Of a stretch of 64,000 nucleotides of DNA, positions 3,301 through 59,493 are shown piece after piece. The stretch comes from Rhizaria sp. SCN 62-66. Its lineage: Eukaryota. The stretch's first letter is position 1. Each line of letters begins with the position of its first letter. Under the pieces are notes generated by a model that ran no database searches, had not been told where the DNA came from, and saw only the letters and a list, made by a program, of their open reading frames with translations. The stretch covers positions 62,001 through 126,000 of the forward strand of contig MEDY01000104.1 of NCBI GenBank assembly GCA_001724265.1, in the 5' to 3' direction. The position numbers and the translations under genes were made by a program.

Positions 3301-3960
3301 GACTTTCTATCAGCACATATCGACGCATTACCAAAGTACGAAACTACATCCCCGACTGAATGCATGATGTGGTGTTGTTTCTCCGATTGTCGTATCGGTC
3401 AAATACATGAAGTCAATGTTTTAGAAATAAATACCCTGACGCTAATACAACGCGCGCCAGGAGAAAATAACCAGACTTAAGTCACAAGCTTAATGACTTG
3501 ATCGATGTCTTGATTATTCTTTCCACAGTGCTCGCGCTTATTAAGACGGTTTGGACAATTCACAGGAAAAAAGCCTCCAATTGTGTATGTATTAATGTTA
3601 CTAATCTCTAATTCAACAACTCACCACAGCGATCACAGTGTAGCCATCATGTGTTAAACTCTTTAAAACAATGCGTTACAGATTTGCAATTGGCGTTAGT
3701 ATAACAAATACATATAAACCAAAATTAGAATATGTTAATTAACTCAACAAATTGTTTAATACGTACAAATATGTTTTCTGCAAAAAAACCATTCAAATAT
3801 TTTATTTGCTGTTTTAAAATTATTTCTGCATTTTTTTATGACCTACGTTTGACAACAAGGTTATTACACGAGAGATTAACATTTAATACTTCCACCTGGG
3901 AATTAATATAAAGTGAAGTTAACCTTGAAAAACGCCAAAATTAAATTTATAATATGTAAT

Positions 3961-16700: not shown

Positions 16701-19700
16701 GGAACAACACCTGCTCGCGCAGCGCAGCGCACTCGCGCTCCAGCGCGCCGCGCTCGTGGTCGTTGAACTGCTGCAGCCGGCGGTCCAGCGCGCGCAGCTC
16801 CTTGGTCGTCGCGGGCCGCCGCAGCAGCGCCGCGCGGACCTCGCCGAAGCGCTCCGTGAGCGCGGCGTTGCGGGCCATGATGCGCGCAACGAGATGCGCC
16901 AGCACCTGCGCGGCGAGATCCTCCGCGCACTGCACGAGCGCGGCGTTGACCTGGCGGCAGTCGATGGCGAACATGACGGCGCGCACGTGCGGCGGCGCCT
17001 GGCTGGCGAGCGCGTCGGCAGTGGCGCGGTGGCGCAGCACCTCGGCGCGGTACTCGTCCAGCGAGCGCGGCTGCGCCAGCCACTGCTCAAGCCGCGCGCG
17101 GTGGTCCAGCAGCGGCGCGTGCGCGTCGTAAAGAGCGAGCAGGCGCGCGCACTCGCGCGTCGACCGGCTCAGCACCAGCGCCAGGTCGCGCCGCAGCGCC
17201 GCGATGTGCGGGCCGGGCAACACCTCGCCGCGCTCGGCGCGCGTGCCCACCGACAGGCAGCGGTCGCCGTCGAGCAGCGGGAAGATCTTGCTCTCGACGC
17301 GCGGGATGTCGCGCAGCCCGCCGACGAGGGCGTCGAAGGCGCGCAGCGCCGTCTTGTCCACGTTAGCCAGCGCGACGTCGAGCGCGACGCGCGGTGAGCC
17401 CTTGACGGCGCGCACCTCGAGGCGCTGCGCAAGCGCGGGCCGCGGGTAGTTGCACAGGCGGTTGCGCGCGTCCTCGGCCGAGCAGCGCGCGTACGCCTTG
17501 CCCTGCGCCACGGCGGCGGCGCGCGACGCGGCTTCCCAGGCGGCCACGGCGGCGGGCGACGCGCCGGGCGCGGGCGGCGGCGGCGGCGCGGCGACGGGCA
17601 CCGCGGCCTCGGCGGCGGGGTCGCGGCGCACCCACATGGCGTGCGCGATGCCCGTGAGCGCCTGCTCAGGGCCCGCCATCTGGATCGCGGGGGCGTTGGC
17701 GTACTGCACAAAGAAGGCGTGAAAAGCCGCCGCCGAGCGGTGCATCACGGAGCGGAGCTGGATGGTCATGAGCGAGGCCACGGCCTCGAAGAGCCGGCCC
17801 GAGTTGGCATCGGTGAGCGCGTGCGCCTTGGCGTAGCGGCGCAGCGCCTGCTCGCATTCGTCCGCCCACTGCGTCGCGAAGACCTTGTGCACCTTGGCCA
17901 GGTGGCGGCGCTGGCGCGCCTCGAAGGCGTCGAGCGAGAGCGGCAGCTCCGAGGCCGCGGGCAGGTCGAAGAGCAGCACGTCGCGGTACTTGCCCCAGAC
18001 CTGCAGCAGCTCCAGCACGGCCGCGTTGTTGGTGTGCAGCGCGCGCGACAGTGACACGAACGAGCTCTGGATCGAGCGCCGCCACGCCAGCGGCGGCTGC
18101 GGCGGCGGCGGCGCTGAGCCCCACGCCAGCGCGCGCGCGGCGGCGGGCGGCGGGTAGGGGATGCCCAGACGCGCGCGCTCGGCCGGATTCAGCAGCACGT
18201 AGTCGAGGATGGCGCGCTTGACGGCGCGCGCGTGGTCCTCCTTGACCTCGAGCAGCAGCGCGCGGATCGCGGCCTCGACCGCGGCGGGCGGCAGCGCGCC
18301 CACGCGCGCGCACAGCAGGCGCAGCGCGTGGCGCACCAGCTCCTCCTTGATCGGTGCCACGGCGTCGGCGGGCAGCGCGCGGTCCACGTAGGCCTCGTAG
18401 CGCAGCCAGGACCGCGCAAGCACTTGCTGCTCGTCCACCAGCGGGCCCGTCGACGAGACAGCGCCGCGCGGCGACAGCATAAAGGCGGCCGCGGCGCTGC
18501 CGGACTCGACCAGCGCGCCCGCGCCAGTGCCGGTCTTGCTGCCGCTGCCGTTGCCGTTGCTGTGGAAGATGGGTCCGCCCGCGGCGGCGTTGGCGAGCGC
18601 GGTGCGCGCAAGCGCGAGCGTCTCTGCGTCGCTGCCGAGTCCCTGGCGTACGGCCGCGGACACAGCCAGCGTCTCGGCCCAGCCAGGCTGCCGCCGCAGG
18701 CCCTCCAGCCCGGCGCCGCTGCTGGCGCCGCTGCTGCTGGCGGCAGTGCCGCTGAGCGCGTTGGCCAGGAGGCCGGTCTTGGGGTCCAACGCCCAGCCGG
18801 CGGCCTCGGGGCTGTAGTTGCTGGCCACGCGGGCCGAGGGCGGCGCGAAGGCGCGTGTGCTGGAGACCGTCGCGGCGCGGGTGCGCGCAAAGCAGTCCAG
18901 CACTGGCGGCATGTTCCCGCCGCCGCCGCTGCTAGCGCTGCCACTCATCGCAGCGCCGCTGCTGTTGCCGCCGCCGGCGGCGCCGGTGGTGGAGAGGAGG
19001 CTTGCGCGGGCCTGGAGCGCGGCGAGCGAGGCGGGCGGCGGCGCGGGGCAGCCGGCGGGGTCTGCGCCGGGCCCCGGCAGCGCGCCCGCCTCGTGCAGCG
19101 TCTGCAGCGCCAGCGGTGGCAGCATCGCGCCGGGCGGCTGTTGCGCCGCCGCCGCGCCCGTGGCCGTGGCGGGGGAGAGCAGCGCGCCGTCGAGCAGCCC
19201 CGCAGCGGCCGCGGCCGAGGGCGTCGTGCCCGGCGGCAGCAGCCCCGAGCGTGCGAGCTCCAGCGTCGCGCGGATCGTGTCCAGCGGCGCCGCGCCGCGC
19301 AGCTTGCGCGCGAACTGCGCCGCCGTCGCCGTGGGCAGCGCGTCGGGCCCGCGAGGCGTGCCGTTGCCGCTGCCGGTGGCGCTGGCGTTGAAGCCGGCCG
19401 AGGACGAGGCCAGGAAGATAGGTGCGTCGGGGGCGCTGCCGCCGCCGACAGCGCCGCCGCCGACAGCGCCAGAGCGCGCGAGGCGGGCTGACACGGCGGG
19501 CAGCGAGAAGTTGCCGAGCGTGCCCGTGTGGGGGTGCGCGGCGTCCGGCTTGCGCGGCGAGAGCGCGTACTGCTTGCGCAGCGTGCGCATCGCGCTGTCC
19601 ACGGCGCCAGGGCCCGGCGCGGCGCCGGAGGCGGAGCCGGAGCCGGCGGCAGAGGCGGAGGCCGAGGCCTCGGGGTTCGCCCAGCGGCCGGGGGTGGCGG

Positions 19701-20559
19701 CAGAGGCGGACTGTGTGAGAATTACGCAAAGATAGAACACAGAATAAGAAATTAGCGAGATATAGAACGGAATATAAGATTATCATTAATATTTGACACT
19801 TTTGCTCTCAAATGAGTCGAATTGGTCGAGATATCGACAGTGACGTAAAGAGAGAGAAACGATCGTTGCAACAGCTGCTATGGCGTTAATAAGACGTACA
19901 TTGTTAGAGGCTCCGTCGCTGGCGTCACCGAAGGACTCGTAGAAGGAGAACTGCACGACGTTGTCCGCGCCGGTGAGCGCGCCAACGCCCATGTCGATGT
20001 GGACGGTCTCCCCGGCCGCGAGGACCTCGCCGAGGCGCTTGCAGAGGTGCGCCATCGCGGTGCGGAACGTCAGCGACTCGCAGCCGGCCATCTTCGACAG
20101 CGTCAGCAGGTTCATGCGCTGCGCAGAGACGTCGTGCGACACCAGCACCGGCGCGTCGGAATCCGCCTGCTGCAGCGAAAACTGTTCCAGGAAGGCCTGG
20201 TAGAAACGGAACGTAGGCACCAGCGCGCCAGAGGCAGCGTTGTTGCCAGTGGTGGCGCCAGCGCGGCCCGCGCGGCCGGGCGTCTTGATGGCAGCGCCTG
20301 AGTCGGCGGAGGCGCTAGCCTGGCGCGCAAAGGAGATGATGCCGATGGGCGCGAGGTTGCAGGAGTTGGTGGCCTTGTACTGGGACGCGATCCAGTACAC
20401 GAAAGCCTGCCAACACGCAGCGTACGTCTTGCCGTTGATCAGGTGAACCAACTGCACGGCGCCGCTAGGGGCTGTGATGTATCGGCCCACGCAGTCCGGG
20501 ATCAAAGACTCGGCTGTGTAGGCGGTGGGCGGCATGCCGCCCGCGGTCGCTGAGCTCAT
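4770..20559 (-). CDS. Axonemal dynein heavy chain, inner-arm DNAH3/7/12-like, with N-terminal CCDC81-type HU module (~5,154 aa)
   Basis: Exons 20559-19900, 19710-11974, 11837-4770; introns 19899-19711 and 11973-11838 are GTACGT..AG, phase 0. P-loops GPAGTGKTET, GLPFAGKST, GPTGTGKS, GLGGSGKQS; FPRFYFLSNEDLL linker, CFDEFNR, QDHYDYGMRAVK, WVLLQNCHLA, YGGRVTD, C-terminal TTGHSTNFV...WIRRGVAL. Confidence 0.96.
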
Positions 20560-26109: not shown

Positions 26110-29100
26110 TTAAGCGAGCATGTCCTCTGCGTCGACGCCGGTGTCCTCGCCCGCCACAGCGCCCGCCGCGGCGCCCGCGGCCTCAGGCCCCTCCTCGAGC
26201 GCGCTGAAGCGGTGGAAGTGCGCGGGGCGGTGGGCCTCGTGGTAAAACTCCTTGGGGTTCTCGAGCCGGAGCCCGTAGCGCATGCCCGCGCTGTGTTTGA
26301 CGCCCATAAAGCTGTAGTTCCACACGCCGCCTGCGTCGGGCACCATGAAGAAGCCCAGGAAGCGGTCCGACAGCAGCGTCTGCACCTTGGCGAAATGCCC
26401 GGGCGCGTAACCGGCCGGGTTGACCATCGCGCTGCCGCCCGCGCCGGCGCCCGCGGCCGACTCGGGCTTGGCGGCGCGGCCCCACTGCACGCCCGCAGGC
26501 GTGAGCCGGTACGCCGTCAGCGAGCAGGAGCCCGGCGTGAAGGCCACCGTGAGCGTGACCGCGGACGCGACGTCCCAGCCCCAGTCCGACCCTCCGCCGG
26601 CGACGCGGCGCGCGTGGAAGGCGCAGTCCTGGGGCGCGAGCACGGGGAGCTCGTTGGGCTGCGTGTGGATCCAGCCCAGCGGCTCGAGCCCGTCCAGGTG
26701 CGGGTGCGCGGGCGCGTGCTCGGGCAGCGTCACGGTCGCGTTAGTGCCGTGCTGCGGTGGCATCACGATGCACCGGATCTCCTTGACGCGCGGGTTGTCC
26801 GCGGGCGACACGCCGTACATAAGGCCCGCGACCTGCGTGCGGAGGTCCGAGGCCGTGACGAAGCGCCGCAGCAGGTTGTTGGGCAGTACGTACGTCAGGC
26901 CGCCGTCGTCGACGTCGTCGGCCGAGACGTAGACCTGCTTGGTGCGCGCGTGCAGCGTGCTGGCGCTGATAGCCCGCACGCGCCAGTCCGTCTTGCTGCT
27001 GAAGACGCGTCGCTCGTAGTTGCTGGTGTGCGCAACTGCGACCTCGTTGCCCAGCGCGTCAACAGACTTGGTCATGACCGCCGTGAGCGCATCCGCGGCG
27101 GCCGAGGACGCGGCGCCCGCGCCCTGGCGCTCGACCTCGGCGATCTGCTCGCGCTGTTGTGACGGCGCGGAGATCTCGGCGCCGAGGATGATGTCGCGGA
27201 TCTCGGACTGCGTCAGCGCCGCGATGTTGACGTTGTTCTTCTTGCCGAAGTCGGCGAGAATGAGGTCCTCGAGCTGGCGCTCGACCTCGCGCCACTCCTC
27301 GTCGCTGAGCGTCGGCCACAGGTGCTGTTCTTGAGTCACCACGGCCTTGTGCGGGCGCAGGATCGCCTTGGCGCGCGGCGTGTTGACGTGCAGCGCGCGC
27401 AGCAGCAACAACAGGCGCGAGAAGCACGTGTAGCTCGAGTTGACGCGCGGCCAGTCGTCGTAAAGCGACCACAGACAGCTCTTGGGCCCGTCGGCGCGCG
27501 CGACCAGGTCGCCCAGCTTGTCGACCTGCAGCAGCGCCTTGAACGGGATCTGGAGCTCGGAGCCCTTGATGACGATGTTGGGGAAGTCCACGCACTGCGT
27601 CTCCATCGGGTCCAGCAACGTCTTGCGCGTCACGATCAGCTGCTTCGGCTGCTCCTCGGTCGGCGAGGACCGGATCAGCGCGCACACCTCCTCGGCCGTC
27701 TTCCAGCGCGCGAGCTGCGTGAGACGCTTCTGGCCCGCCCACACGCTCGTGTGGATGACCTTGAGGTAGAGGCGGCCCGAGCGCGGGTTCACGACGAGGA
27801 TGGCGCCGTTGACGGGCTTGGTGACGGTGTTGCCCTCGGCCGTCTTGTGGATGTTGGCCAGGTACACGACGCTGTCGTCGACGAACCACGTCGTCGTGTC
27901 CGAGAAGAGCTCCGAGTAGTTCTGTGACGACAGGTACGGCTCGGTGGGCTCGGAGGAGTAGAGCTGCAGCGCCTTGCGCAGACGCTCGCGTAGCACGTAC
28001 AGCGCCGGGTTGGCCTTCATGATCTTGGCCATGGCCTGCTGCATCAGCATCTTGACGCCCGGGATGAAGTTGCCGTAGCCCGAGTAGAGGTTGTAGGCCA
28101 GGTCGACGCCCAGCAGCAGCCCCGTGGGGGACGGGTAGAGCGAGTTGGAGGACGAGTAGTCGAGGAACTTGCCGCGCACGTGGCGCTCGATGTCGTGCGA
28201 ATCGTAGTCGCCCCAGCGCAGCTGCACGTCGAGCCAGTACTTAGTCGCCGTGAGCCCTGTGTAGGAGTCCTCGCGGTCCGTGAGCAGCGAGTAGTCCGAC
28301 ACGGGCCACTTATACGCCGCCAGAAGCAGAATGTCCGCGCATGATGCGTCCATCTTGTACGACTTGCGCGGGTGGATCGTCTCCTTCTGCACCGTCTCAA
28401 TCTGCAGCGCCTCCAGCTCCTGAGAGAATGGTGAAAGTATGGAAATAGCGAAAGACATTGTGAGTGAAGTACAGTTAAAAGATGTAAAAACGACAGTAAG
28501 ACATTAAATTCACTTCGTAGTTAAGAGAATAATTCTTAAATGCAATATTTTTAAGGGAAATTGTTTCACTATTCCGTACCTGGTCGAGGACCTGACAGAG
28601 GTCCATGACGAGCGACTCGTGGATTTTTTGCCACAGGTGCGCACGGAAGATCTGCAGCAGCGAGACCTTGAGCGTGGGCATCTTGCCGTGCATGTAAATG
28701 CCCGTGAGGTCGAGCTGGACCTGGAAGCCGACGTAAACGTTGGAGCGGTTGATCGTGGGCGACCACCAAAGCACGAAGCGACGGTTGGGGATTTGGTTCA
28801 AACCGCTGCGCTGCGCGTTGGTGAGCTTCTTGTACTGCATCGAGTCCTCGAACGAGCTCGTCTTCTCCCAGAACAGGCCCTCCCACGTGGGGAAGTACGT
28901 GGCCTTGAAGAGCGTGTGCTCGAGAATGCCCTCGACGCCGCCCAACGCCTGCATCATGTCCGAGCGGTAGTTGTTGAGCGACCAGAGCTTACCTTCGTGC
29001 TTCTGGTTCGTCCACCAGAAGGGGTTATAGCGCGTCTGCGTGTACTGGCGCCACTCGGTGCGCACGCGCCACCCGCGGTCGTACGCCAGCGTCTGCCGGT

Positions 29101-32100
29101 CCTTGGCGAAGAGCGTGTTGATGCGCGGCACACCGCGGTCCCACAGGTCCTCCAAGTCTTCCAGTGTCAGACGCCGGTTGTTGGCCTCGGCGGCGTCGTA
29201 GCGCGTCTTGTAGTCAGCCCACACGCGGCGCGACTCGAGGAACTCGGTCTCCCACGGCTGCAGGTAGCGGTACAGGTTGGGGATGTCCTCGTCCTCGCCG
29301 TGCGTCATGCCCGCGCGGAAGTGCGTCGCCGCCAGCGTCGTCTCCTTGCCGTAGCGACGGTCCGACTGCGGAATCAGCACGTGGCCCATCGACAGCATTC
29401 CCAGCCCGCCCAGCTCCTTGGGCGAGTAGAACACCGTCGGCGGGAAACGCGTCGGCATCTTGGAGTTGAGCCCGATCTTGATGCGCGTCTGCATGCGGTT
29501 CTCGCACTTGACGAGCAGATCGAGCATCTCCTCCGTCTGCGTCACCGCCTCGCGGTAGTAAGTCATGAAGCTCAGCACAGCCGTGTTCCACTTGGACGCG
29601 ATCTTGACAAAAGTCGTCGCGCCCGACGACAGCAAGATGTGCCTGATCCGGTTGTTGAACGCGGTGATGGCCTTCTGCTCGACGCGCAGGAAAGCGACAG
29701 CGGTACGCTCCTTAGTGCGCTCGTTCTGGAGCCCCCAGGTGCCGTCGCGCAGAGAGAACTCCTCGGTGTCGAGGCGCGAGCAGGGCACGATACGAACCTC
29801 GAAGCCCGCCATGGCAAAGAGCAGGTTCGGGTTGTCGCGCGAGTACACGGACACGAAGGACTCTGCCCACTCGAGCGTTGTGATGGAGCGCGGAAGGCGG
29901 TTGCGCATCTCCCAGAAGACTGCGCGGCCGAGGTTCACGTCGTGCTTGAGCAGCCGCATGCGGCAGTCGCGCGGCCAGCACTTCTTGTTGTCGTAGTCGA
30001 CCAGGTTCTCGTTGTTCGGGTCCGGGTTCTCGGTCAGGAAGCGCTGCGTGAGGTCCTTGGCCTCGTCGCCGTCGAGCTTGAGCACCATGTACACGCGGTC
30101 GTTGTAGCGGCAGTAGAGCCGAATCGGGTGCCGCGTCTCGGTCTCGGCGTCCTCGGGCGCGTAGTCGGGCGAGAAGACGCCGAAGGGGCGCGGGCGCGTC
30201 GGGGGGCCCGCCAGCTCCGAGGCGCGCACCAGCCCCAGCAGCAGCAGGTCGAGCACGAGCGCGTAGCACTGGAAAAGGAAGGACGAGAACTCGAGGCCGC
30301 GGATGAGTCCGTAGGAGTTGACGTGGTTCATGTCCTTGTACGACAGCGAAACGTCGTTCTTGCCCGTCATGTAGTCCGCCAGCGCCGGATCCACGAGGCG
30401 CCGCAGCAGGCGGTTCAGCAGCACCAGGTCGACCTTCTCGTAGACCTGCGAGAGCGAGGTCTCAAGCAACACCATCGACTGGCCCTCGGCCGTGTCCCAG
30501 GCTCCGGTGAGGTTGTTGACGGCCTGCGCAAGCTTGTACACCAGCATCGGCGGCGGCTCCGTGTCCGCAGGCTTGACCCAGCTGGGGAAGAGCGAGCGGC
30601 GCGACGCCTCGTACCACAGATACTGGTCCAGGTACGCGTCGGTGATCTTCTCCAGCGGATCGATGAGGTACACAGGCGTGAGGTGTGAGTACTGGTCGAA
30701 ATACTCGATGCCCACCTCCTTGAAGGCGCGCACCGTCAGCAGCGCCTTTTTGATGCGCGCCAGCGTGTCGTGCGGGTTGTCGAAGCCCTTCTCGATGAGG
30801 CCCAGCTCCTCGCGCTGCGCCGCGTTGAGCCGCGTCACGGACACGTACTGGTCCTTGAGCCGGTCGAGCGCGAGCGTGAGGATCTTGGTGTCGTACTTGT
30901 AGTTGGCCGGCGGGAACGGGATGGGCGCGTAGCGGCGCGACTCGAGCCAGTTAGTCATCGTCGTCAGGATCGCGGCCGCCTCCTCGGGCGTCACGTAGGG
31001 GCCGTCCTTGCGGTAGTTGTGCTGGCGCTCCTGCTCGGCCTTGAGCGCGAGCCGCGTGAGCCGGCCCAGGTTCTTGCGCGCGACCGTCTTGTCCACCGTC
31101 GCGCCGCGGCGGATGCGCTCGCGGTTGTAGTAGGCCACGTTGGTCCACCAGTCGGCCTTGGCCTTGACGTAACGCAGGATCATCGCCTCAACCGGCGCGG
31201 GCATGCCCGGGACCTTCCAGGGCAGGTTAGCGCGCCAGCAGCGCCAGGCCTCGGCCAGGTGCTGCGTGATGGCGCGCGTCTTGACGGCCTTGACGCCGTC
31301 GGGCACCATGTCCAGGATGTCCTGCATCACCGCGTGCCGCAGCTCCAAGTCGTAGGTCGACTCGATGCGCTGCTTCGACAGCGACTTGACCACGCCCTTG
31401 GTGGGGCGGCCCTCGAACTGGCGCGCAAGCAGGTTGCCCAGCCAGTGCTCCAGCAGCGGCACGATGCCGCGCAGGAAAAACATCCACACGCGCCAGAGCG
31501 GAGCCCAGAAGCCCACGCCGGGGCCCTCTCCGACGGGGCCGGAGTTGAAGCGGTGGCAGATCAGGTTGTTCAGGTCCTTGCATTGACGCACCTAGAGATA
31601 GATCACAAATAAAACAAAAATATAACAAATAGACATGTGAGACTATTGAAAATTAAAATAATGATTCATTTCATATTGATGTCATATTCAACTGATATAA
31701 TATCTCTTTGTGAAAGTAGTTCTCGAGTCTGAGACGGACCTGGCGCATGACGCGGTACTTGTAGCGGTAGATGGCGGTGAGGTGGCCGACATTTGAGAAG
31801 AGGAACTGGAGCCCGTCGGCGAGCTGGAAGGCGTCGACGTCGCCCAGGCGGTACTTAACGTGGCAGTCGACGACGAACTTGGTCAGGCGCAGGACCTCAC
31901 CCATGAGGTAGAAGGAGTTGCCGAAGCGGCTCTTCTTGCGTTCCTTGGTCGTCAGCGTGCGCGTGGGCTTGAGCACGAAGTTGTAGTTGAGGTGCAGGTA
32001 CGCGACGTTTTTGCGGTGGATGAGCAGGTTGAGCATGTTGTGGCCCTGGCGGCAGACCTGCAGCCCCGCCTCGACCCAGTCCAGCGTCGTCGACTGGAAG

Positions 32101-33835
32101 AACCCAGTGCGCGCGAGGCCAGTAAAAAGCGAGCGGCGCTGCACGGCGCGCGGGGGCTGGCGGTGCAGCTGCCCGAGCACCCAGTGCTTGAGCAGCTTCT
32201 GGTACGACACGCGCAGCTCGCGGCTCGCATCGCGCGGCAGCCGCTCCTTGTACCACTCGCCGACCAGGGCCACGTCCTGCGCGCGCCTCGTGGCGCCCGC
32301 GCGCGCGCTGAAGGGCGCGGCGGCGTGGTAGAGCCCGATGCCGTCGGCCGTGCCGTCCAGTGACAGCGACAGCGCCTCCAGGGGCGCGCCCACGCCCTCG
32401 GGCAGCAAGAAGCCCGGACTGCGACCGCTGCCGCTGTCGGCAGCGTCGAGCGCGGCGTAGGCCTCGTTGTCGGCGGCCAGCAGCGCCTCGAGCTCGCGCT
32501 CGGCGGCGGCCTCGGCGGCGGCGAGCGCGCGGTGCGTGGAGCGCAGCGAGGTGACGGGGTACACCACGGGGTCGAAGAAGAAGGCCGGCAGGTCGGGGTC
32601 GTCGGGCCGCACGTACACGGAGCAGGGCGCGTGGTAGCGGTCCAGCTCCACCTTGCGCGGCCGGCTGTTGTACACGTTGGGGAAGGCGACGCGGTACTCG
32701 GTGCGGATCGCGCGCCGGATGATGAGCTTCTTGATGTCGTTGAACTCGTCCCAGTCGGCCGCGGCGTCGGCGGCGCCGCCCTGGTCGGGAAACAGAGGCT
32801 CGAACGAGGGGCCGCCCGGGATGGCGAGCCCCAGCGCCTTGGCCGTCATGAAGGACCGCTGGTTGAACAGGTAGAAGGCGTTGGCGTCGCTGGCGTCGGG
32901 AAGGAGCACCGAGGCCAGGCGGTACAGGTTCGCCAGCACCGGCACGTCGAGTCGGTAGTTGCGATACGAGGGCCCGTTCACGACGCCCTTGGCCGTGGCG
33001 AGCGGCCGGTGATCGTAAAACCAGTCAAAGACGGGGTCGTCCTCGTCCTCGTCGAGCTCCAGCTGCACCGGCTCCAGCGGCGGCTCCACGCCCAGCAGCG
33101 AGTCCCCCCAGTCCAGCGGCGGCTCCTCGTCGTCGAACGGAGGGAAGTGCATGCGCTTGAAGTTCGTGCGGTCGTGCTTCTCGCGGCGCATAGCAACCCA
33201 CATCGTCGCCCACTGTGCCGTGTACACGGGCGCGATGACGCGCGGAACCTCGTTGACGAAGGTGATGGCGCCGGTCGCATGGTACAGCACCTTGACCTCG
33301 CGCGCCTGCTCCCAAGGCATCGGCACGTTCTCCAGCAGCTTGTATACCGCGTGCGGGACATACTTGAGCGCGCCCAGGTACACGCGCTTGTCGTGCCGGA
33401 AGCGGTTCGTCGACATGTCGCCGTGATCCTTGATCACTTTGCGCAAGTACTCCGGCGGCATCTCGGCCCGCGAGGCCGCATGCGCAGCGGCGGCGGCGCC
33501 CGAGGACGTCGAGGCCGTGCGGCGCGCGCGGGCCGCCTTGGAGACGAAGCGCTTGTGGTTCAGCTGCGCCCAGGCCTTGGCCTTGGCGTCCAGGCGGCTG
33601 AAGGAAAGCAAATAAAGTGACGGGAGAGCGAATGGAAAGAAAGTGAGCGCGTGAGAACGAATAGGCGAGATAAGTTCCAAGTTTGAACAGACAAAAGTGA
33701 AGAAAAAAACAGGATAATTTGGAATGAGCAGTCATTTAGCACAATAGTAAGCGTTTGTTGTCCATAAAATGACAGGACGTACGCTGTGTCGAGCACAATG
33801 CCGCCGATGTCCGTCATGGGCGCGGCAGCAGACAT
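26110..33835 (-). CDS. PRPF8: Pre-mRNA splicing factor Prp8 (2,410 aa)
   Basis: Exons 33835-33783, 33597-31740, 31591-28580, 28419-26110; three GT-AG introns conserve frame. Hallmarks [77 protein letters not shown]. Confidence 0.99.
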
Positions 33836-36291: not shown

Positions 36292-39200
36292 TTAGTCCTT
36301 AGCATCAGTGGTAGCATCGGCGTTAGCGTCAGCGTCTGCATCGGAGTCGTCAGAGTCGGAGTCTGATGACGAGGGGTCGCTTGAATCAACCCAGTCGCCC
36401 ACACTCTCACTCTCACCATCACTCTCGCGCCCGCACTCGCCAGCACTCGCGCTCGCAGCCGCAGTCGCAGCAGACAAGACTGCGGCGGCCGCGCCGGCGC
36501 CGGCGCCGAGCGTCGCGAGTGCCCTGGCCACGTCTCCGGGCGAGATCCACACGCTCTTCCTCTCTGAGTCTGACGGGGCACTCACACCAACTGCTCCCAC
36601 TCCCGCTCCCGCTGCAGCTGCTTTCTCGCGCTTGTGCCTGCGGAGCGCCGAGAGCGCGGCCTGCGTGCACAGCGCCTTGAGCTGCGCCGAGGCCCAGCCG
36701 CCCGTCACGCCGTCGGCCGCCGCCGCGCGCCACACACGCGCCCAGCCGCGCCCGCGGGCCAGCTCGAGCTCCCCGTCGCCGTAGCCCGCGCTAATCGCGT
36801 CCGCGGCGGCGAAGTCAACCGTCATTACAGAAGCAGTGCCGTTGCTCTCGGTCTCAGAATCACTTTCAGGAGTACTGTCGACAGCTTTCTTCGCGTTATC
36901 GTGCTTCTCGGCGGCGGCGCCGCGCTTCGGCGGCAGCAGCGGCAGCAGCGGCATGCTGCTGCCCAGCGCCGCGAGTACCTTAGCCCTGGCGCGCGCGTCG
37001 GGCCGCGGCGCGCGCAGGTGCAGCCCCAGGCGGCCGGGCCGCAGCAGCGCGCGCGGCAACTGCCAGGGCACGCGCGAGGTCGTCACAACCAGCACCAGCG
37101 GCGCGCGCTCGGCCACCGCCGCGCTCACGTCCAGCACGGAGCCCAGTCCAGAGCTAGAGCCTGAACCAGAGCCGGAGCCGTTGCTCGCGCTGGCAGAGCT
37201 GCGAGGATGCGGGATGGGCCTGGGGACAAGTGTGGGAGCGGGTGCGGGCTCGTTGCAGCGGTCGAGCTCGGTGAGAAACACTGTCAACAGGCGGGGCACC
37301 TTGCCACCGCCGTCGTCGTCGTCCTCGCCAAACTCGCCGTCGCCGTCGTCGCCGTCATAGGCGGCGTCGTCGTTATTGGCCGCGGCACTGCCGGCGCTCT
37401 TGTTGGTGTAGTTGCTGCGGCGGTGCGCGCCAGTAACGGTGGCCACGTCGTCGTCGTCGCCGTCGGACCCCAAGCCCGACTCACTGCCCGCCGCGCCGCT
37501 CGCACCGGCCTTGCCGCCGCTGGCGCCGGCGGCGAGCAGGCGCGCAACAGCCCTGCGCGCGCCCGCGGCGGCCGCGGCGGGGGTCTGCCTCTCGCGCCGC
37601 AGCCGCCCGCCGCCGCCACCGGCGCCGACGGCGTTGTTGCTACTGCTGCTGCTGTGGCGAGAGCCGGCGGCGTTAGTAGCGGCGGAGACTGGAGACTGCG
37701 CGGACGCGGGCGCGGGCGCGGGCGCGGGGCTGGCGAACAGACGGGCGGGCGCAGGGCCCGCACCAGACGTAGTACCGGCGCCGGAGCTCGAGCTGGAGCT
37801 AGAGCCGAAGGCGGGGATGGGAGCGGGCGTGCCGAAAGCGGGGACGGCAACAGGGGTGCCGAAGGCCGGCACTGCAGCGGGGCTGCCGAAAGAAGGAACA
37901 GGGACAGGACTGCCGAACACAGAGCCAGCGCCAATGTTGGCGTTCGCGCCGCTGCTCGTGTTTGAGTTCCGAGTGATACTGGAGATGCTCGTGGTCTTGG
38001 AGGGCGACGCAAAGGCGAAAGACGCCATCATCGGTGTCAGAGTAGTTTCGTTTGATGCAAGTGTTGCAGGCGTTGCAGCAACAGCAGTTGCGCTCGCAGT
38101 CGCAGTCAAAGCGGTGGCAGGGCCACTATCATTACTCACTGCACTTGTAGGAGCAACAACGTCACTTGCGTTGTTTCTCTCGCTCTTCTTGTCCTTCTTG
38201 TCCTTTTTCTCTTTCTTCTTCTTCTTGTCCTTCTTGCTCCTGCGCGTGTACTGCTCCGCGCCGCCGCCGCTGCCGCTACCGGTGCCGCAGAGCGCCTCGA
38301 TGTTGTCGAGCACGAGCACGCAGGGCGCGGCGGCCCTGGCAAGCGCGAACAGCTCCCGGACCGCGGCCTCCGAGCCGCCGACGCGCTTGCTAACGAGCCC
38401 CGGCGCCGAGGCCGCCAGCGCGGGCAGCCCCGCCGCACGCGCCAGCGCCAGCGCCAGCGCCGTCTTGCCGCAGCCCGAGGGCCCGTGCAGCAGCAGTCCG
38501 CGTGCGGGCGCGACGCGCAGGCGGCCCTGCAGCGGCCACAGCAGGCGCGCGTGCAGCGCGAAGACGGCGCGCGAGAGGCCCTGCAGCGGCGCGAACGCGG
38601 GGTGCAGTCGCGCGCGCAGCGCAGCAACACCGGCAACGCGAGCGAGGCCAGTAAGGCCAGCACTGCCGTTGACGCGGGGGCCGGCGCCGGCGAACGAGGC
38701 CGACTGGGCGGCGGCGAGCGCGGCGGCGTCTGCGGTGAGTGGTGGCAGCACGAGCCGGTGCGCGGAGGTGGCCGTGGCCGCGGGGCCGCCGGTGGCCGCG
38801 AAGGCCGTCTCCCAGTCACTTGCGGCGACCAGCACGCGCACGTCTAAGGGGGTATTTACACCCTTGCTAGCCGTGCAGCGCGCGACTGCTGCGAGCATGG
38901 CCTCGGAGCAGAGCCGGTGCAGGTCGGCGGGCAGGTAGCCGTGGGCGCGCTCGGCCAGCGACGCGATCGCGCGCGCGCGCTCCGCAGCGGACGCCAGAGT
39001 GCCAGCGCCAGAGCCGGAGCCAGAGCCAGAGCTCGAGGGAGAGCTAGAGCCAGTGGCAGTGGCAGGGGCAGGGGCAGCGAAAGGGAAGCGCCTGGTGAGC
39101 GTGACGAGCAGAGCGGTGCGCTGCGCCGGTGAGGGCGCGGCGAGCAGCACCGAAGCGCCGACGCGATCGCTGCGCAGCAGCGCAGGCGGCAGCGCGCGCG

Positions 39201-41724
39201 GGCGCGACGTCAGCAGCAGCACGAACACGGACGGGCGCGGAAACAGCGACGGGGGCGACGACGGTGACGCAGACGCAGAGACAGAGGCAGATAAAGTTGT
39301 ATGAGACTCATTTTTCTTATTCTCCTGCTCTTGCTGTTGCGTCTGCTGCATTTGCGTATGCGTTTGCTGCTGCAGCGCAGCGGCAAGCCGCGCCAGGAGC
39401 CTGCGCCCAAGGCGCACGTTGCGGCCCGCGCTCACGCCGTCCACGCCGCCCGCGCCCTCGGCGTCGTCGTCACCGCCGCCGCCGCCGCCGTAGGCCGCGG
39501 TGGGGGCCAGCGCGTCGACGTCGTCGATGACGAGCAGACACGCGGGGGCCGCCAGCGGCAGGGCAGAGCGCGCCCTCGCCACAGCAGCAGCATCGGCAGC
39601 AGGATTAGCGGTGATACTGTTGCTGTTGATCGCGGCTGCCGCTGTGGCGAGCGCGGCGGCGGCGGGCCAGCGCTCCACGGCAGCGGCGGCGGCGCGCGCG
39701 AAGAGGTCCGCCAGCGCGCGCTCGGCGCCACCCTCGGCCGCGCTGTCGTACAGGTCGCCGGCCGCCACGCGCAGCGACGGGAAAGGCGCCGCCGCGGCCA
39801 GAGAAGCGGCCAGATGTGACTTGCCGCTGCCGGGCGGGCCGTGCAGGAGCGCCGTCACCGTCGCCGCTAACGGGGCGGAGACAGCGACGGTGTTGGTGTT
39901 AGCAATGGCGTTAGAGTTGCTGTTGTTGTTGACGGCAAGTGCAGAGCAGAAGTAGGAAATGAGCGCTAACGCAGGGTCAACGTCGCTGCTGTCCGCGTCG
40001 GCAACGTTAGCATTGCTGCTGTTCGTGCAGTTGCTGCTTACACTTTGCGGAGGCAGAGTGCCGCGCGCGTAGAGAGTGAGGTTGCCGTACTTGACCCCGC
40101 CCGACTGCGCGTCTAAGGGAGTACTTACACCGGCCCCAGCGCAGCCCGTCGCGGCCAGAGACCACACGCGTTGCACAGCGCCCGCAAGCGCCGGAGCACT
40201 CACAGCGGCAGCTGAGGGGGTACTTACACCCGTCGGAACGTTCGCTGCAGACTCAGGCAACTGCTCTGACACCTGCGACTCATCAGACTGCCTTGACTGA
40301 GACTCGTCTGCGATCGCGAGCGGCGGCAAAAGCGAGATGTAGGGTGCGGTCGCAGCGGAATTGAACACGTACACGAGTCCGTTGCCGTTGCCATCGTCAT
40401 CGTCATCGTCATTGTCGTCGCCGTCATCGTCATCGTTACTGCTCTTGCCAACGCGAGCAGCGAGACTCGCTTTAGACTTGACGACACGCTTGCTGAAGCT
40501 GAACACAGTGCTCCTAGCAGCCCCCTTTGCAGCCGTGCCCTTAGCCGCCGCGGGCCCTTTAAGCGCTGCGGAGCCCGAAGTCAAGCCGCTGGGCTTGGCT
40601 GGGACAGGCAAACGGAACAGACTCGCCATACGCCGCTGCCAATCACTCATCCGCGACTGCGAGCAGAGCGGCTGTGATCGCAGAGGCGCCTTGGGCGGCA
40701 TCACCAGCGCGGGCCCCGCCGGCCCCAGCACGAGCTGCCCGCGCGCGGCCACAACCAGGGCTCCAATGCGCGTGCCGGCGACGGCCGCGGCAGAGCCTGC
40801 GGGGCCTGCGGCGGCGGCGGGCGCGGCGGCGGCGGGCGCAGAGCAGTGCGACAGCCACCGCGGCGGCAGCAGCAGCGCGGCCAGCGGCCGCCCCCAGCCC
40901 TGGCCTGCGCTGGAACTCGCACTTGCACAAGAGCTAGAGCTGGAGCCAGAGCCAGAGCGAGAGTAAATGAGTGCAAGGGGAGGCGGAATGGGGGCCAGCG
41001 GGAGCGGGCACGGGGCGGGGGCGGCGGGCGGCACAGAGGCAGAGCCAGGGGCAGCAGTCGAGCTGAACGGAGTGAGCCTCAGCACCAGGCGAGACAGCGA
41101 CGGCGACTGCGACAACACGGAGAGTAAGGGCGGACACAAAAGAAGAGAGGAGTGCAGATACTGCAACAAGAGCAGGATGAAGCCGCCCAGCAGCGGCGAC
41201 ATCTGCACAGCTGTGCCGTCAGTGCCAGTCGCGGGGGCAGCACTCGGACAGTTGTTTGCGCTGCTGTCGGAAGGAGACAGCGAGAGGCCATACGCAGCAA
41301 AGTCGGCAACCACTGACGGCGCAAGGCGGGAAAACAACATGTCGCACGACACCGCAGCCACGCTGCTCAGTGCACCCGCATCGGTCAAAGCAGTCAGAGC
41401 TGAGTCAGCGCCGGCGTCAGCGCTGGCGACCGAGGAGTCGGACAGGATGGGGTAGACTTGCACGGCCATGGCTGAGCCGGGGACGGCACCAGCAGAGCCG
41501 CTGTCGGGTCTCGCATCAACATCGGCCGCAGCGGTCTGCGCCGCAGCGGTGTCGAGCGGGGCGACGGCGAGGAAGGCGTGGGCCCAGCCGCCGGGGGCGA
41601 GGCGCAGAGCCGCCAGCACGGGGCGCGGGAGGAAAAGCAGGCGGCGCTCGTAGGGCTCGTTCGGGGACAGGTAGGACGGCGCGGAAACAATTTCCGCGGT
41701 AAGGATGGAAAGGGGCAGGTCCAT
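36292..41724 (-). CDS. Two-ring (Cdc48/AFG2-superfamily) AAA+ protein with large low-complexity inserts (~1,810 aa)
   Basis: Uninterrupted ORF, first ATG at 41724, TAA 36292. D1 LLHGPPGSGKS / LLVIDDVDAL / AHGYLPADL; D2 LLLHGPSGCGKT / VGGSEAAVRELFALARAAAPCVLVLD / ALLRPGRL. Subfamily not assignable by eye. Confidence 0.85.
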   Translation of the reverse strand: MDLPLSILTAEIVSAPSYLSPNEPYERRLLFLPRPVLAALRLAPGGWAHAFLAVAPLDTAAAQTAAADVDARPDSGSAGAVPGSAMAVQVYPILSDSSVASADAGADSALTALTDAGALSSVAAVSCDMLFSRLAPSVVADFAAYGLSLSPSDSSANNCPSAAPATGTDGTAVQMSPLLGGFILLLLQYLHSSLLLCPPLLSVLSQSPSLSRLVLRLTPFSSTAAPGSASVPPAAPAPCPLPLAPIPPPLALIYSRSGSGSSSSSCASASSSAGQGWGRPLAALLLPPRWLSHCSAPAAAAPAAAAGPAGSAAAVAGTRIGALVVAARGQLVLGPAGPALVMPPKAPLRSQPLCSQSRMSDWQRRMASLFRLPVPAKPSGLTSGSAALKGPAAAKGTAAKGAARSTVFSFSKRVVKSKASLAARVGKSSNDDDDGDDNDDDDDDGNGNGLVYVFNSAATAPYISLLPPLAIADESQSRQSDESQVSEQLPESAANVPTGVSTPSAAAVSAPALAGAVQRVWSLAATGCAGAGVSTPLDAQSGGVKYGNLTLYARGTLPPQSVSSNCTNSSNANVADADSSDVDPALALISYFCSALAVNNNSNSNAIANTNTVAVSAPLAATVTALLHGPPGSGKSHLAASLAAAAPFPSLRVAAGDLYDSAAEGGAERALADLFARAAAAAVERWPAAAALATAAAAINSNSITANPAADAAAVARARSALPLAAPACLLVIDDVDALAPTAAYGGGGGGDDDAEGAGGVDGVSAGRNVRLGRRLLARLAAALQQQTHTQMQQTQQQEQENKKNESHTTLSASVSASASPSSPPSLFPRPSVFVLLLTSRPRALPPALLRSDRVGASVLLAAPSPAQRTALLVTLTRRFPFAAPAPATATGSSSPSSSGSGSGSGAGTLASAAERARAIASLAERAHGYLPADLHRLCSEAMLAAVARCTASKGVNTPLDVRVLVAASDWETAFAATGGPAATATSAHRLVLPPLTADAAALAAAQSASFAGAGPRVNGSAGLTGLARVAGVAALRARLHPAFAPLQGLSRAVFALHARLLWPLQGRLRVAPARGLLLHGPSGCGKTALALALARAAGLPALAASAPGLVSKRVGGSEAAVRELFALARAAAPCVLVLDNIEALCGTGSGSGGGAEQYTRRSKKDKKKKKEKKDKKDKKSERNNASDVVAPTSAVSNDSGPATALTATASATAVAATPATLASNETTLTPMMASFAFASPSKTTSISSITRNSNTSSGANANIGAGSVFGSPVPVPSFGSPAAVPAFGTPVAVPAFGTPAPIPAFGSSSSSSSGAGTTSGAGPAPARLFASPAPAPAPASAQSPVSAATNAAGSRHSSSSSNNAVGAGGGGGRLRRERQTPAAAAAGARRAVARLLAAGASGGKAGASGAAGSESGLGSDGDDDDVATVTGAHRRSNYTNKSAGSAAANNDDAAYDGDDGDGEFGEDDDDGGGKVPRLLTVFLTELDRCNEPAPAPTLVPRPIPHPRSSASASNGSGSGSGSSSGLGSVLDVSAAVAERAPLVLVVTTSRVPWQLPRALLRPGRLGLHLRAPRPDARARAKVLAALGSSMPLLPLLPPKRGAAAEKHDNAKKAVDSTPESDSETESNGTASVMTVDFAAADAISAGYGDGELELARGRGWARVWRAAAADGVTGGWASAQLKALCTQAALSALRRHKREKAAAAGAGVGAVGVSAPSDSERKSVWISPGDVARALATLGAGAGAAAAVLSAATAAASASAGECGRESDGESESVGDWVDSSDPSSSDSDSDDSDADADANADATTDAKD

Positions 41725-43191
41725 GGGGACGCCGCGCACTCGCTTGCAGAAGGGCTGGAGAGGGGCGGGGACGAGGGAGTGAGGGAAGTAGCGGGAACTG
41801 TCCGAGGGTGAAATCGAGTGGACTGTGAAGTTCTAGAGAGACTCTGTGGAAATATAATTAAGAAAAATAACAAATAAAATGTGAGATTGTCATGATACTC
41901 CAACAACTTCGTAAATGACGGACATTTGACACCACCTCGAGATGCCTGCGCAAACTGACTCGGTCGCTTGCTTGAGCCACAGATCGCCAGCCCGAACCTG
42001 TGCCGTGATGTGTAAGCGTCATTAAAAACATGCACATCTCAGTCATATCTTGAACATTTCTAAAAATTCCAACGTTTCACATTTTTTCAAGATGTATCAT
42101 TCTAGAACTTAAAGTTATTATTGCAGTCAGCAGTAATTCTACAGTAGAAACCTTGCAGCTACATACCGGATTTGTTACACTTTGTCACTCGTGACGGCAA
42201 CAGACAGACCGCGACACAAAAGCACAAGAACAGCACGATTGCTCTGCATAACGCACATTGCCTTCAACAACGCTAAGGCTAATGACCCAGAATGCTGCAT
42301 CAGCAAAGCAATCAGAACTTGTTTCGAGGCTAACCCAGTGTTGTTGGCGAGACTGACAACGAAGTGTGTAGCTCTTGCAAAGACGCGTTCTGCCGTCTAT
42401 TGTGCTTGTTTGCAACGCAAAAAGAGAAGAATGAAACAAAGCATTGCGGAGCAAAATGAAATCCGCAACGTGACTGCGAGGGCTTGCGCGGGCGGGCAAA
42501 AAAAAGACATGCTTGCAACACGACGCATTTCCCGCGTAGTCACCTACCGCAGTACTTAGCGCGCCCAACGGTGTTTAACTTCAGAGAGCGGACGGGATCT
42601 GGTGTATCGCAAGCTGACTGCCGGCTTCTTTTTAGAGTTATCTACATTAAAAAAAATCTGAGATTGCTTTTTACTCTTTTTTTGTCCGATCTATTTCTTG
42701 GTCGTCATAACAAATTGAATGCTCTATGGCACAAAACACTATGGTAACACAATGACACACAATATGACGGGCACAAAGAGAGTGGCGCAACATTCACGCG
42801 CGGCGACTATCGCGCGCCGGCACGTTACTAGTACTAAAATAAGTACCAGGACAAATCTCCCACAACCACGACGACACGGCTGCAGTCCGTCTCACTCACA
42901 GGAGCAAAGCACAACCAAAACATTCGCGCAGTTAATGTGTTTGCGACCCAGCCCATGACCGATCAAAAGCGATGTGGCAGTCACATTCTAAACAGCCGCG
43001 TTCGCAATGCGAGCTTGCAGTCACGTGAAAAAATGCAATTTAGCAAAGAATACACTTGTGTAAAAGTGTAAGAGTTATTCAAGTTGCTGTGTATGATGTC
43101 ATCCTCAGTTCATTCGCAAAATTCAGTCGAAGCATTGATGTTATTTTTAGTCATTCTCATCGGCAAGCAAACTTTCTCAATCAGTTACAAG

Positions 43192-57208: not shown

Positions 57209-59493
57209 TCAGTTGACCATCCCCGAGGCCTTGAGCGAAGCCTTGACGATGATGTCCTTGACGCTGTGGAAGACATACGCAATGTTGCCGGGGTCCGTCG
57301 CGCACGTGAGGTGCGTCGTCAGCTTGTGGCCCATCGCACCACCACCGCCGCCGCCGCCGATGCTGCCGCCGCCGCCGCCGGTGGGGCTGGAGTTGTTCGC
57401 TCCGGGACTGCCGCCGCCAACGTTGGTGCTGTTGGCGGTCGTCGACGTGGTGTTGAGGCCGAACGCGGCCGCGGCGGAGCCCTTGTTGATGAGAGCGTTG
57501 GCGTTGACGTTGTTGTTAGTTGGGTTGTTGTTGCCGAGCGACTTTGAGACAGAACCGGTGTTGTTGTTGTTGGTGTTGTAGTAGTGGGCCGGCTTGAACG
57601 CGGGCGTGCCGTCCGCAGACGCGTTGTTGGCGTTGTACGAGTTGTTCTCAGGATCGTTGCCGCTGTTGGCGAGAGCAGAGACAGCGGCAGCGCCGTTTGT
57701 GGGACTCATGTCGGCGTGGTTCACGAAGCCGGAGCCGATGACGCTGTGCGTGTTGTTCGCGTTGTTCACGCTGGTGAGCGCGCTCACGCTCGTCAGCGTC
57801 GCCGTCGTCGCCGCGTTGTGTGCGTTGGCGCTCGCACTTGGACTGCCGATGACGTCGGCGCCAGCAGCGCCAGAGCCAGCGCCAGCCGTGGCAGCGGCAG
57901 TGGCGGCCGCGGCGTTGGCTGTGGCGGAAGCGTAGTTTGTAGTGCCGCTGTACACTGCAGCGCGCTCGAACTGGAGCTGGATCCACGCCGCGACAGCTTC
58001 GTACTCATTGGGGCCCTCGTAGTCGGGGAAAAAGAGCTTGAAGAGGACTTTGTCCTGCTCGATCTTCTCCCACAGCGCGTCGCACTTGTTCAACAGCAGG
58101 ATCACAGGCACGCCGCCCAGGTCCTTGGACGCGAGGCGGCACACCTCGGCGAAAAGAGCCAGCTCCTCTGCGAGGCGGTTGACGCTGGCGTCCTCCTTGA
58201 GCGGCATATCGAAGCTGGCCAGATTAGCCACGAAGACGATGACGGTCACATTGGTGAGGCACTTGACCCACTTGCGGCGCTCGCTGCGCTGGCCGCCCAC
58301 GTCGACGACGTTCATCACGCACCCGTCGACGGAGAAGCTGATCGTGTCGATGCCCGTCGTGCGCGCGCGGCAACGCAGAATGTCCTACATAAGTGGGGCG
58401 AAAAAGAAGAAGAAGAAGAAGATGATACAACGTTGTTATGAGAGAATGAATTTGAAGATTGACCAAAAAATTAAAGTTAATATGTAAATTACAAAACGTA
58501 GTTATAAAACAGAGTTATAATATCAAACAAGCATATCTCAAAGAGACATATAATCAAAGTCAAAATGTGTTACTCTGACACATTTTTTGATTTTCTCTTC
58601 TGAAACTGAAACAGAACACGACGACGTACCTGGTCGGTGGGCACGTACTGCGGGTCCGCAAGGTCGTGCAGGCGCGCGAAGAAGTACCCCGCGCAGTCGG
58701 GCAACTGAACCGCGGCGCGCCACTGGTAGGCCCAGAGCACGCCTGGGTCGTGCCAGAGCTTCATGATGTGGTAGCCGACGTCGAAGGAGACGTCCGAGTC
58801 GGCGTCGTGCTCCAGCACGGCCTGCCACGACGCGTACGCGTCCGGCCGTAGCTCGGGGCCCGGCTGGTGGAAGAAGGTGAACTCGGGCACGATCCCGCGG
58901 TACCGCGCCAGCTACGGCGGCGTCACGAGCGCGTGCCGCGCGTACGCCAGGATCTGAGCGGAGGCGGCGCCGCGCGGGCGAAAGGCGTAGATGTCGCTCA
59001 GCGGGCCGCCGGGGCCGTCCGCGCTTACGAGCGCCGTCGAGTGCGAGTTGTAGCTGTTGTTGGTGTTGTTAAGGGATGTGAGACTGGTGTCCGTGGCGTC
59101 GTCGCCGTAGTTGTTGCTGCCGCTGCTGTTGCTGATGTTAGGATTATTGTTGGCGGCCTGGCGCTGCACGTAGACCTTGGCGGTGCTGCGGAGCTCGTTC
59201 GACAGCGTGCGGCCGTGCACGAGCGTGTTCTTGCACAGCACCTGCATGCACGCGACCGAGTTGTGGTGCACGATACGGCGGTAATGCTCGCGCTCGGCGT
59301 TGGTGAAGCCGCGCGTGTAGAGCGACTGGAACTGGCGGAACAGCGTCGACTTGCCCGAGTCGCTGGCGCCCAGCAGCACGAGCTTGCTGGCGCAGAGGTT
59401 GCTGAGGTCGATGCCGGCGAGCGCTGAGTCGGTGGAGTGCAGGCCCGGCTTGAGGGACGCGCCGGCCGCCGAGGCGGAGCCGCACTGACCCAT
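57209..59493 (-). CDS. Heterotrimeric G-protein alpha subunit, with an in-frame TAG at 58912-58914
   Basis: Exons 59493-58630 and 58384-57209, intron GTACGT..TAG. MGQC acylation start, LLGASDSGKST, DILRCRARTTGI, DVGGQRSERRKW, LLNKCD, TCATD. The two listed ORFs 58912-59493 and 58570-58890 are in the same frame, separated by one TAG. Confidence 0.9.

Follow-up and report, generated by a model that had tools for sequence, protein, structure and literature searches.

An in-frame UAG in a G-alpha gene points to a nuclear code in which UAG is probably glutamate

Introduction

What does a TAG codon mean when it interrupts the reading frame of a gene that otherwise looks intact? The question arises in the window analysed here, i.e. 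a stretch of 64,000 nucleotides (G000:C104:62001-126000) from a metagenome bin of 34.9 Mb (roughly 35 Mb) in 714 contigs, where a gene for a G-protein alpha subunit carries a single TAG in its first exon. The ALTERNATIVES of the sequence-only reading comprised rare sense decoding of UAG, programmed readthrough, an atypical intron, and a nonsense allele or base error. As described below, sense decoding stands, whereas the other proposals do not.

The G-alpha gene and its internal TAG

The gene lies on the minus strand. Exon 1 (58630..59493) consists of 288 codons, starts with MGQCGS, contains the G1 box GASDSGKST and includes the TAG at 58912..58914. Numbered from the ATG at 59493 this is codon 194, and the minus strand around it reads CCG CCG TAG CTG GCG CGG TAC. 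The frame then continues to a genuine GT-AG intron (58385..58629, minus strand, 245 nt, 30% GC, phase 0), which is followed by exon 2 (57209..58384, minus strand) with the G2-G5 motifs, a low-complexity insertion and a TGA stop at 57211-57209. The product is identified as a heterotrimeric G-protein alpha subunit by its Pfam G-alpha match together with the G1-G5 motifs visible in the translations, to which we assign the usual motif names. The description of an intact gene with one TAG at codon 194 is confirmed.

The Pfam matches cover residues 36-112, residues 231-288 and exon 2, i.e. both sides of the TAG. The gap between them corresponds to an Asn/Ser/Ala-rich insertion of about 118 amino acids (residues 113-230, 58804..59157, minus strand) that falls between profile positions 84 and 104. 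The helical-domain location proposed earlier for the TAG is therefore correct and can be narrowed to this insertion. Since the TAG is inside it, none of the 56 representative homologue hits spans the site. The best two of these 56 are the same G-alpha, split at the TAG by a standard-code gene caller (P0247/P0248), and the public protein P0248 ends exactly at codon 194. If codon 194 is read as sense, the gene should give a full protein of 679 amino acids.

The TAG at 58914-58912 is real. A return to the reads at position 58914 had been proposed. Two runs, X2 and X4, from studies P2 and P3 that are not marked as a possible source, have Logan contigs that bridge the TAG and show no difference there; in the contigs of the weaker runs X5 and X7 it is outside their reach. 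The presence of the same TAG in contigs of two other studies means that it is not a base error.

UAG inside genes and at gene ends

In-frame TAGs are also present in other intact conserved genes of this genome, so that the list comprises eRF1, two G-alphas, five kinase domains, UBE2J1 and a ubiquitin domain. In the second G-alpha, on contig C103, the TAG occupies the switch-II Glu position. This contig (L007/L009/L095, G000:C103, from ~38150) carries a very long and divergent G-alpha-like reading frame, open over 3425 amino acids and with huge Ala/Gln-rich insertions, and there is another in-frame TAG on the same stretch. A PDB search with a fragment of this G-alpha gave no match at E 1e-7. 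Among the 142 kinase profile matches 11 contain a TAG, and inspection of all 11 classified five as coding and six as intronic or acceptor TAGs, while five matches contain TAA or TGA (four intronic, one not inspected). The TAGs of L086, L093 and the first of L094 turned out to belong to splice acceptors and do not enter the amino-acid and context counts; those of L087-L089 are intronic.

Two scans show the same tendency. A Markov scan of about 510 kb for stops with coding signal on both sides found 10 TAG, 1 TGA and 0 TAA, where two of the 10 TAGs are the pre-selected G-alpha sites and the lone TGA is probably in the wrong frame. The stricter scan of all loci found 14 inner TAGs and no TAA or TGA. 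A loose codon-bias scan (TAG 94, TGA 25, TAA 11) was swamped by antisense and shifted frames; it was not used for any tally, and a few in-frame TAG sites were hand-picked from it. In 400 kb chosen without bias (C42 and C4) the strict count is 5 in-frame TAGs in 59,222 codons and the looser, hand-curated count is 14. The resulting frequency of UAG, 1-2.4 per 10,000 codons, equals about 0.2-0.4% of the Glu codons, in accordance with the earlier statement that UAG is not a commonly used sense codon. Within the window, the dynein heavy chain, PRP8 and double-AAA ATPase regions (4770-19779, 26110-33731 and 36292-41832) contain no in-frame TAG over thousands of codons.

The gene ends complement this picture. 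In the sample of about 510 kb, which is approximately 1.5% of the genome, the terminal-like stops are TAA (35), TGA (21) and TAG (2). About 7 of the 56 terminal-like TAA and TGA codons follow splice donors, as judged by eye, and neither of the two TAGs is a gene end: one comes after a splice donor and the other is followed by at least 130 open codons. TAG is thus found at 0 of about 49 inferred gene ends, all of which are TAA or TGA. The probability of this outcome is 0.0003 if TAG had a 15% share of the stops, and 0.006 at a share of 10%. In the window itself, three of the 22 long reading frames checked end in TAG, namely the G-alpha site, a dynein exon that runs into its intron, and a shifted frame in a gene whose true end is TGA; the earlier remark that no gene ends in UAG holds for the window as well as for the larger sample. 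UAA is the main terminator, and no in-frame TAA was seen in either scan.

A tRNA with a CUA anticodon

The genome was searched for a tRNA that could read UAG, as the sequence-only reading had suggested, and one was found. A CUA anticodon-loop pattern gave six hits, of which ARAGORN called one, a single-copy gene on C84 (G000:C84). Neither the six short-arm nor the 12 long-arm pattern hits included a further CUA tRNA, and none of the 12 long-arm hits was a tRNA at all. The gene was compared with 28 other tRNA types recovered from the genome, a set that is incompletely scored (63 of 506 candidates): its identity is 64% with the tRNA-Glu(CTC) of this genome, with which it also shares the acceptor-stem start and the T-arm, and at most 55% with the other 27 types. 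Its body is a canonical Glu-type cloverleaf, a poly-T run follows directly, and the coding style of C84 is typical of the genome. The anticodon loop contains A36-A37-A38, the isopentenylation motif that helps to decode codons starting with U. Minimum free energy folding did not recover the cloverleaf (z -1.5), and a generic T-loop pattern was uninformative. ARAGORN labels the gene 'Pyl', which presumably follows from the anticodon alone. As a side observation, the tRNA-Ala genes of this genome start with GTG, where GGG is usual, and tRNA genes cluster at contig ends.

With in-frame TAGs in conserved genes, no TAG at the inferred gene ends and a CUA tRNA, the idea of rare UAG sense decoding has gained substance, and we regard it as very probable, on the basis of the genome sequence, that UAG is a sense codon. 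In the scenario that we propose, a copy of tRNA-Glu(CUC) would have changed its anticodon to CUA, as the sequence likeness suggests. Charged with Glu, this tRNA would pair with UAG and would not pair with UAA. UAG, apparently no longer used as a terminator in the sample, would now have entered genes, though very infrequently and for the most part in regions that tolerate it, and codon 194 of the G-alpha gene would be one such site. What we infer in this scheme is that the tRNA is expressed and charged, which amino acid UAG stands for, and how efficient the decoding is.

The amino acid at UAG

The amino acid was estimated from eight conserved alignment columns by summing log-odds over the sites. 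Under three pseudocount settings the sums are 6.4-7.0 for Glu, 2.9-3.4 for Asp and 0.4 to -3.1 for Gln, respectively; the values 6.7, 3.4 and 0.1 are used for comparison. The sums for Leu, Tyr, Trp and Ser are negative, and Leu is negative in six of the eight columns. We note that the test consists of these eight columns only and that two of them carry most of the Glu signal. At position 107 of eRF1, the column has 107 E, 9 D and 1 V among 117 homologues (of 120 hits, 3 that were fused or duplicated were left out). The switch-II column of the C103 G-alpha has E in 26 of the 27 representatives with the motif and in all four of the genome's own paralogues. The UBE2J1 column consists mainly of D72, H20, S11, E6 and N5 among 120 sequences.

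If one consistent residue is sought across these eight columns Glu leads, but there is a site to which Gln is clearly the better match. This site is in the ubiquitin domain, which reads TAG at a position occupied by the Gln codon CAG in the ubiquitin of this genome. The domain differs from that ubiquitin by 27 synonymous and 10 other codon differences, which indicates purifying selection. The domain is near the end of a long reading frame (L054, G000:C681, ~1455-3750), followed by a stretch which we take to resemble a tail-fibre chaperone (peptidase S74) domain; the gene is possibly mobile or virus-derived, with the host code adopted.

The main competitor is therefore a code in which UAG is sense and stands for Gln, or for a mixture of Glu and Gln, either because GlnRS mischarges the CUA tRNA of Glu origin or because a tRNA-Gln(CUA) was left unassembled. 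The ubiquitin site would fit this reading, since the domain is under selection, and so would the kinase site L085, where human NEK1 has Gln. Amber suppressors are often mischarged with Gln. The commonest reassignment of UAG is likewise to Gln, according to the accessible part of PMC11687900. On the other hand, Gln is found in 0 of 117 eRF1, 0 of 31 switch-II and 0 of 120 UBE2J1 sequences, and the body of the CUA tRNA is of the Glu type. A neighbour-context model, which has weak power, places Val, Thr and Ser above Glu, Glu in the middle and Gln last. Moreover, at position 2 of the same ubiquitin domain Gln has plainly been replaced by Glu, which suggests that this exchange is tolerated there; the step from CAG to TAG is a transition and, with Glu as its outcome, would be a mild exchange. 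Taken together, we consider Gln or a mixture improbable, and a variant nuclear code with UAG as Glu and with UAA and UGA as stops likely. On this genome-wide evidence codon 194 of the G-alpha gene would be a sense codon, most likely for Glu.

Readthrough, splicing and error at the G-alpha site

A very improbable alternative is that the standard code applies and that the G-alpha site alone is passed by programmed readthrough, favoured by a stop-C context and a 3' stem. The TAG is indeed followed by C, and a 12-bp palindrome (58896..58907, no strand assigned) begins 4 nt downstream; the positions given in the sequence-only reading for this palindrome (58907-58896 as read on the minus strand) and for the GTAAGC (59028) are correct. 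A 12-bp palindrome within 10 nt also accompanies 47 of 4313 GAG/CAG codons (~1%), and the one seen here is probably incidental. The base at +4 of 26 curated in-frame TAGs (G10, C9, T4, A3) reveals no common context and resembles that after sense GAG (G 0.42, C 0.29, T 0.12, A 0.17). The 80 nt after the G-alpha TAG fold at -25.0 kcal/mol against a background of -30.1 +/- 8.9, i.e. more weakly than in 71% of the controls. Readthrough is also at odds with the absence of TAG from the gene ends of the sample and with the existence of a cognate tRNA, and the 193-aa stop product would be without G2-G5.

We give even less credence to an atypical intron of 117 or 15 nt, GC-rich and in frame, with the TAG as its acceptor. 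GT dinucleotides do occur in frame upstream of the TAG, and as six of the 11 TAGs in kinase matches are intronic or acceptor TAGs, TAG acceptors are common in this genome. The candidate introns have a GC content of 73-76%, against 30% in the real intron, and the coding score of the longer one is positive, at 0.25 per codon. A pyrimidine tract is absent: there are 15 G in the 40 nt before the TAG as opposed to 2-8 at 10 real acceptors. In eRF1 and UBE2J1 the TAGs are located in gap-free alignments, so that intron removal is impossible there. It is similarly hard to credit that the codon was misread in sequencing, or that the gene is decaying and recently acquired a nonsense allele, for although the TAG is in a non-conserved insertion and the contig depth is only about 6, the codon is identical in the X2 and X4 contigs of two other studies and at the end of P0248, the essential eRF1 gene has a TAG as well (repeated in L197), and an error would leave the TAG-only excess, the empty TAG stop class and the tRNA unexplained.

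eRF1 and a possibly incomplete reassignment

An inspection of eRF1 had also been suggested by the sequence-only reading. A search with the eRF1_1 profile gave three matches, i.e. one eRF1 and two exons of another gene that we take, by its motifs, to be pelota-like. The only eRF1 gene found has its TAG at human position 107 (Glu107), in a gap-free alignment upstream of GGQ, and ends with TAA. Human numbering follows 1dt9; the PDB search gave nothing at E 1e-55 and was repeated at 1e-40. Exon 2 (L016) contains 15 AAG codons and 1 AAA, and this one AAA comes directly after the TAG, so that two rare codons adjoin in a gene with biased codon usage.

The TAG is also present in the JGI contig L197, which is 100% identical and possibly from the same sample. 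A metagenome scan for eRF1 returned 30 loci, one of them identical and the rest at most 69% identical, and hence no congener. The closest relative, the JGI protein P0006 (84% identity), has Val at position 107 and has T58K and L126M in common with our eRF1. The Val suggests that site 107 may be relaxed in this lineage, and the genome of P0006 is a candidate for a related altered code. K58 is common to P0006 and five ciliate-like eRF1 loci; within the stretch displayed, three of these five loci read TAA in frame at a Gln position. The metagenome paralogues L210, L211 and L218 have a strongly altered NIKS region; L210 and L211 contain an in-frame TAA at Gln-like sites and are probably from an organism in which UAR is Gln.

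The N-domain changes in our eRF1 include T32S, M34V, G57S, T58K, L126M and K130Q (human numbering), while the UAG-linked residues E55, Y125 and N129, as well as L69, are kept. According to the accessible parts of the literature, residue T32 makes contact with the G of UAG and is replaced by Gly in Iotanema (PMC5304391), and T32S is neutral in human eRF1 in vitro, where E55, Y125 and N129 are linked to UAG (PMC3632111). The residues searched for are not mentioned in the accessible part of PMC12440015.

As UAG is very rare and eRF1 keeps the residues that read it, the reassignment may be incomplete and self-regulating. An eRF1 with E55, Y125, N129 and a hydroxyl at position 32 might still recognise UAG and compete with the single-copy tRNA-Glu(CUA). 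Under such competition UAG would be absent from gene ends and almost absent from genes, which would explain its rarity. The UAG at codon 107 of eRF1 itself would then act as a negative-feedback valve. Bacterial RF2 has a valve of this kind in its own mRNA. A stop-type codon inside a release-factor gene has also been described for the class-I release factor of Mimivirus and Megavirus, which contains internal stops and for which autoregulation was proposed (accessible part of Jeudy et al. 2012, PMC3521657). That gene is viral and uses readthrough and frameshift under the standard code, whereas ours is a cellular eRF1 with a cognate tRNA and a putative feedback. By a hand estimate, the chance of a TAG in a 440-codon gene at the observed rate is about 4-10%, so chance also allows the TAG in eRF1. 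Overall we regard an incomplete, self-regulating reassignment as a tentative and rather unlikely extension of the code with UAG as Glu.

The source organism

Sequences of the assembly occur in bioreactor and wastewater metagenomes. The presence of dynein heavy chain and CCDC81 genes in the window suggests a flagellate. In a protein tree the PRP8 branch is long and falls within a clade that includes the rhizarian Amorphochlora (FastTree support 0.994); this is a tree of one gene in which 39 of 120 hits were used and from which excavates and other deep groups are absent. The best single-domain PRP8 hit is 74% identical, and there is no close relative among the named PRP8 and eRF1 hits. Based on these sequences the source is probably a cercozoan-type flagellate, and a sainouroid (Sainouroidea/Helkesida) identity is plausible.

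The ubiquitins begin with an extra Met-Ser. This extension is in line with the amino-acid insertion at rhizarian polyubiquitin junctions (accessible parts of PMC12930898 and PMC6133090), and no monomer-monomer junction was seen. The ubiquitin of this organism (L189-L196) is unusually divergent, with Gln at position 28 and many other changes in addition to the Met-Ser extension; stand-alone monomers have short tails after GG, and several copies are at contig ends. Contig C706, which is not firmly linked to the bin, carries a very divergent 18S gene (L188, G000:C706:4459-8903; 4,445 nt) in which four matches to group I introns were found. The first insertion region of this gene (~L188:2090-3000) is long and possibly contains a homing endonuclease reading frame.

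Relation to known codes

The following comparisons refer to the accessible parts of the papers cited. The closest parallel is the rhizarian exLh (Sainouroidea), in which UAG is Leu and UAA and UGA are stops (Panek et al. 2017, PMC5304391). As in exLh, UAG alone would be reassigned here, with UAA and UGA as the only terminators, and the supergroup is the same according to the PRP8 tree. The exLh code, with Leu at conserved columns and a tRNA-Leu(CUA), was not found here: Glu is favoured, Leu is negative in six of eight columns, and no long-arm CUA tRNA was found. Moreover, exLh has 384 in-frame UAGs in 71 genes as compared to 1-2.4 per 10,000 codons in our genome, its eRF1 has L69A where ours keeps L69, and its tRNA gene was not identified, while a CUA tRNA gene was found here (PMC5304391).

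UAG as Glu is known from the ciliate Oligohymenophorea sp. PL0344, where UAA is Lys (McGowan et al. 2023, PMC10553269), and there, as proposed here, it is decoded by CUA tRNAs derived from tRNA-Glu. In PL0344, however, UAA is sense, UGA is the sole stop and there are 10 CUA tRNA genes, whereas here UAA is the main stop, a single CUA gene was found, and the scans contain no in-frame TAA. UAR is Glu in peritrich ciliates and Blastocrithidia (PMC11687900, PMC5304391), which agree with our genome in the meaning of UAG and differ in that UAA and UAG are reassigned together.

Nuclear codes in which only UAG is reassigned are found in Iotanema spirale, Hartmannula sinica and Trochilia petrani (UAG = Gln), and in TARA phyllopharyngean MAGs (Leu) and Scotinosphaera (Ser) (PMC5304391, PMC11687900). 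The code proposed here is of this type and differs from all of them in the amino acid. Phyllopharyngeans use UAG in 78-91% of genes, where it makes up 6.5-32% of its codon family, in contrast to about 0.2-0.4% of Glu codons here. The UAG-only nuclear codes in PMC5304391, PMC11687900, PMC10553269, PMC4381064, PMC3632111 and PMC10770858, as well as in PMC12930898, PMC13746701, PMC6133090 and bioRxiv 10.1101/850610, stand for Leu, Gln or Ser. A code with UAG as Glu and with UAA and UGA as stops was not found in searches of the open-access literature, in which UAG appeared as Glu only where UAA is also reassigned. The code proposed here would thus be one for which we found no earlier open-access report, and its usage is unusually low.

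Changes that separate UAG from UAA are rare. At the practical level, standard gene callers split TAG-bearing genes, as is seen in P0247/P0248. If the rhizarian placement holds, this is the second UAG-only code in Rhizaria, with an amino acid different from that of exLh, which would suggest that UAG was first emptied and then captured twice. If the reassignment is indeed incomplete, the genome would be a natural snapshot of an intermediate stage of eukaryotic stop-codon capture. The usage of UAG is lower by orders of magnitude than in known cases; together with the availability of both the tRNA gene and the eRF1 gene, this makes the choice between codon capture and an ambiguous intermediate testable without culturing.
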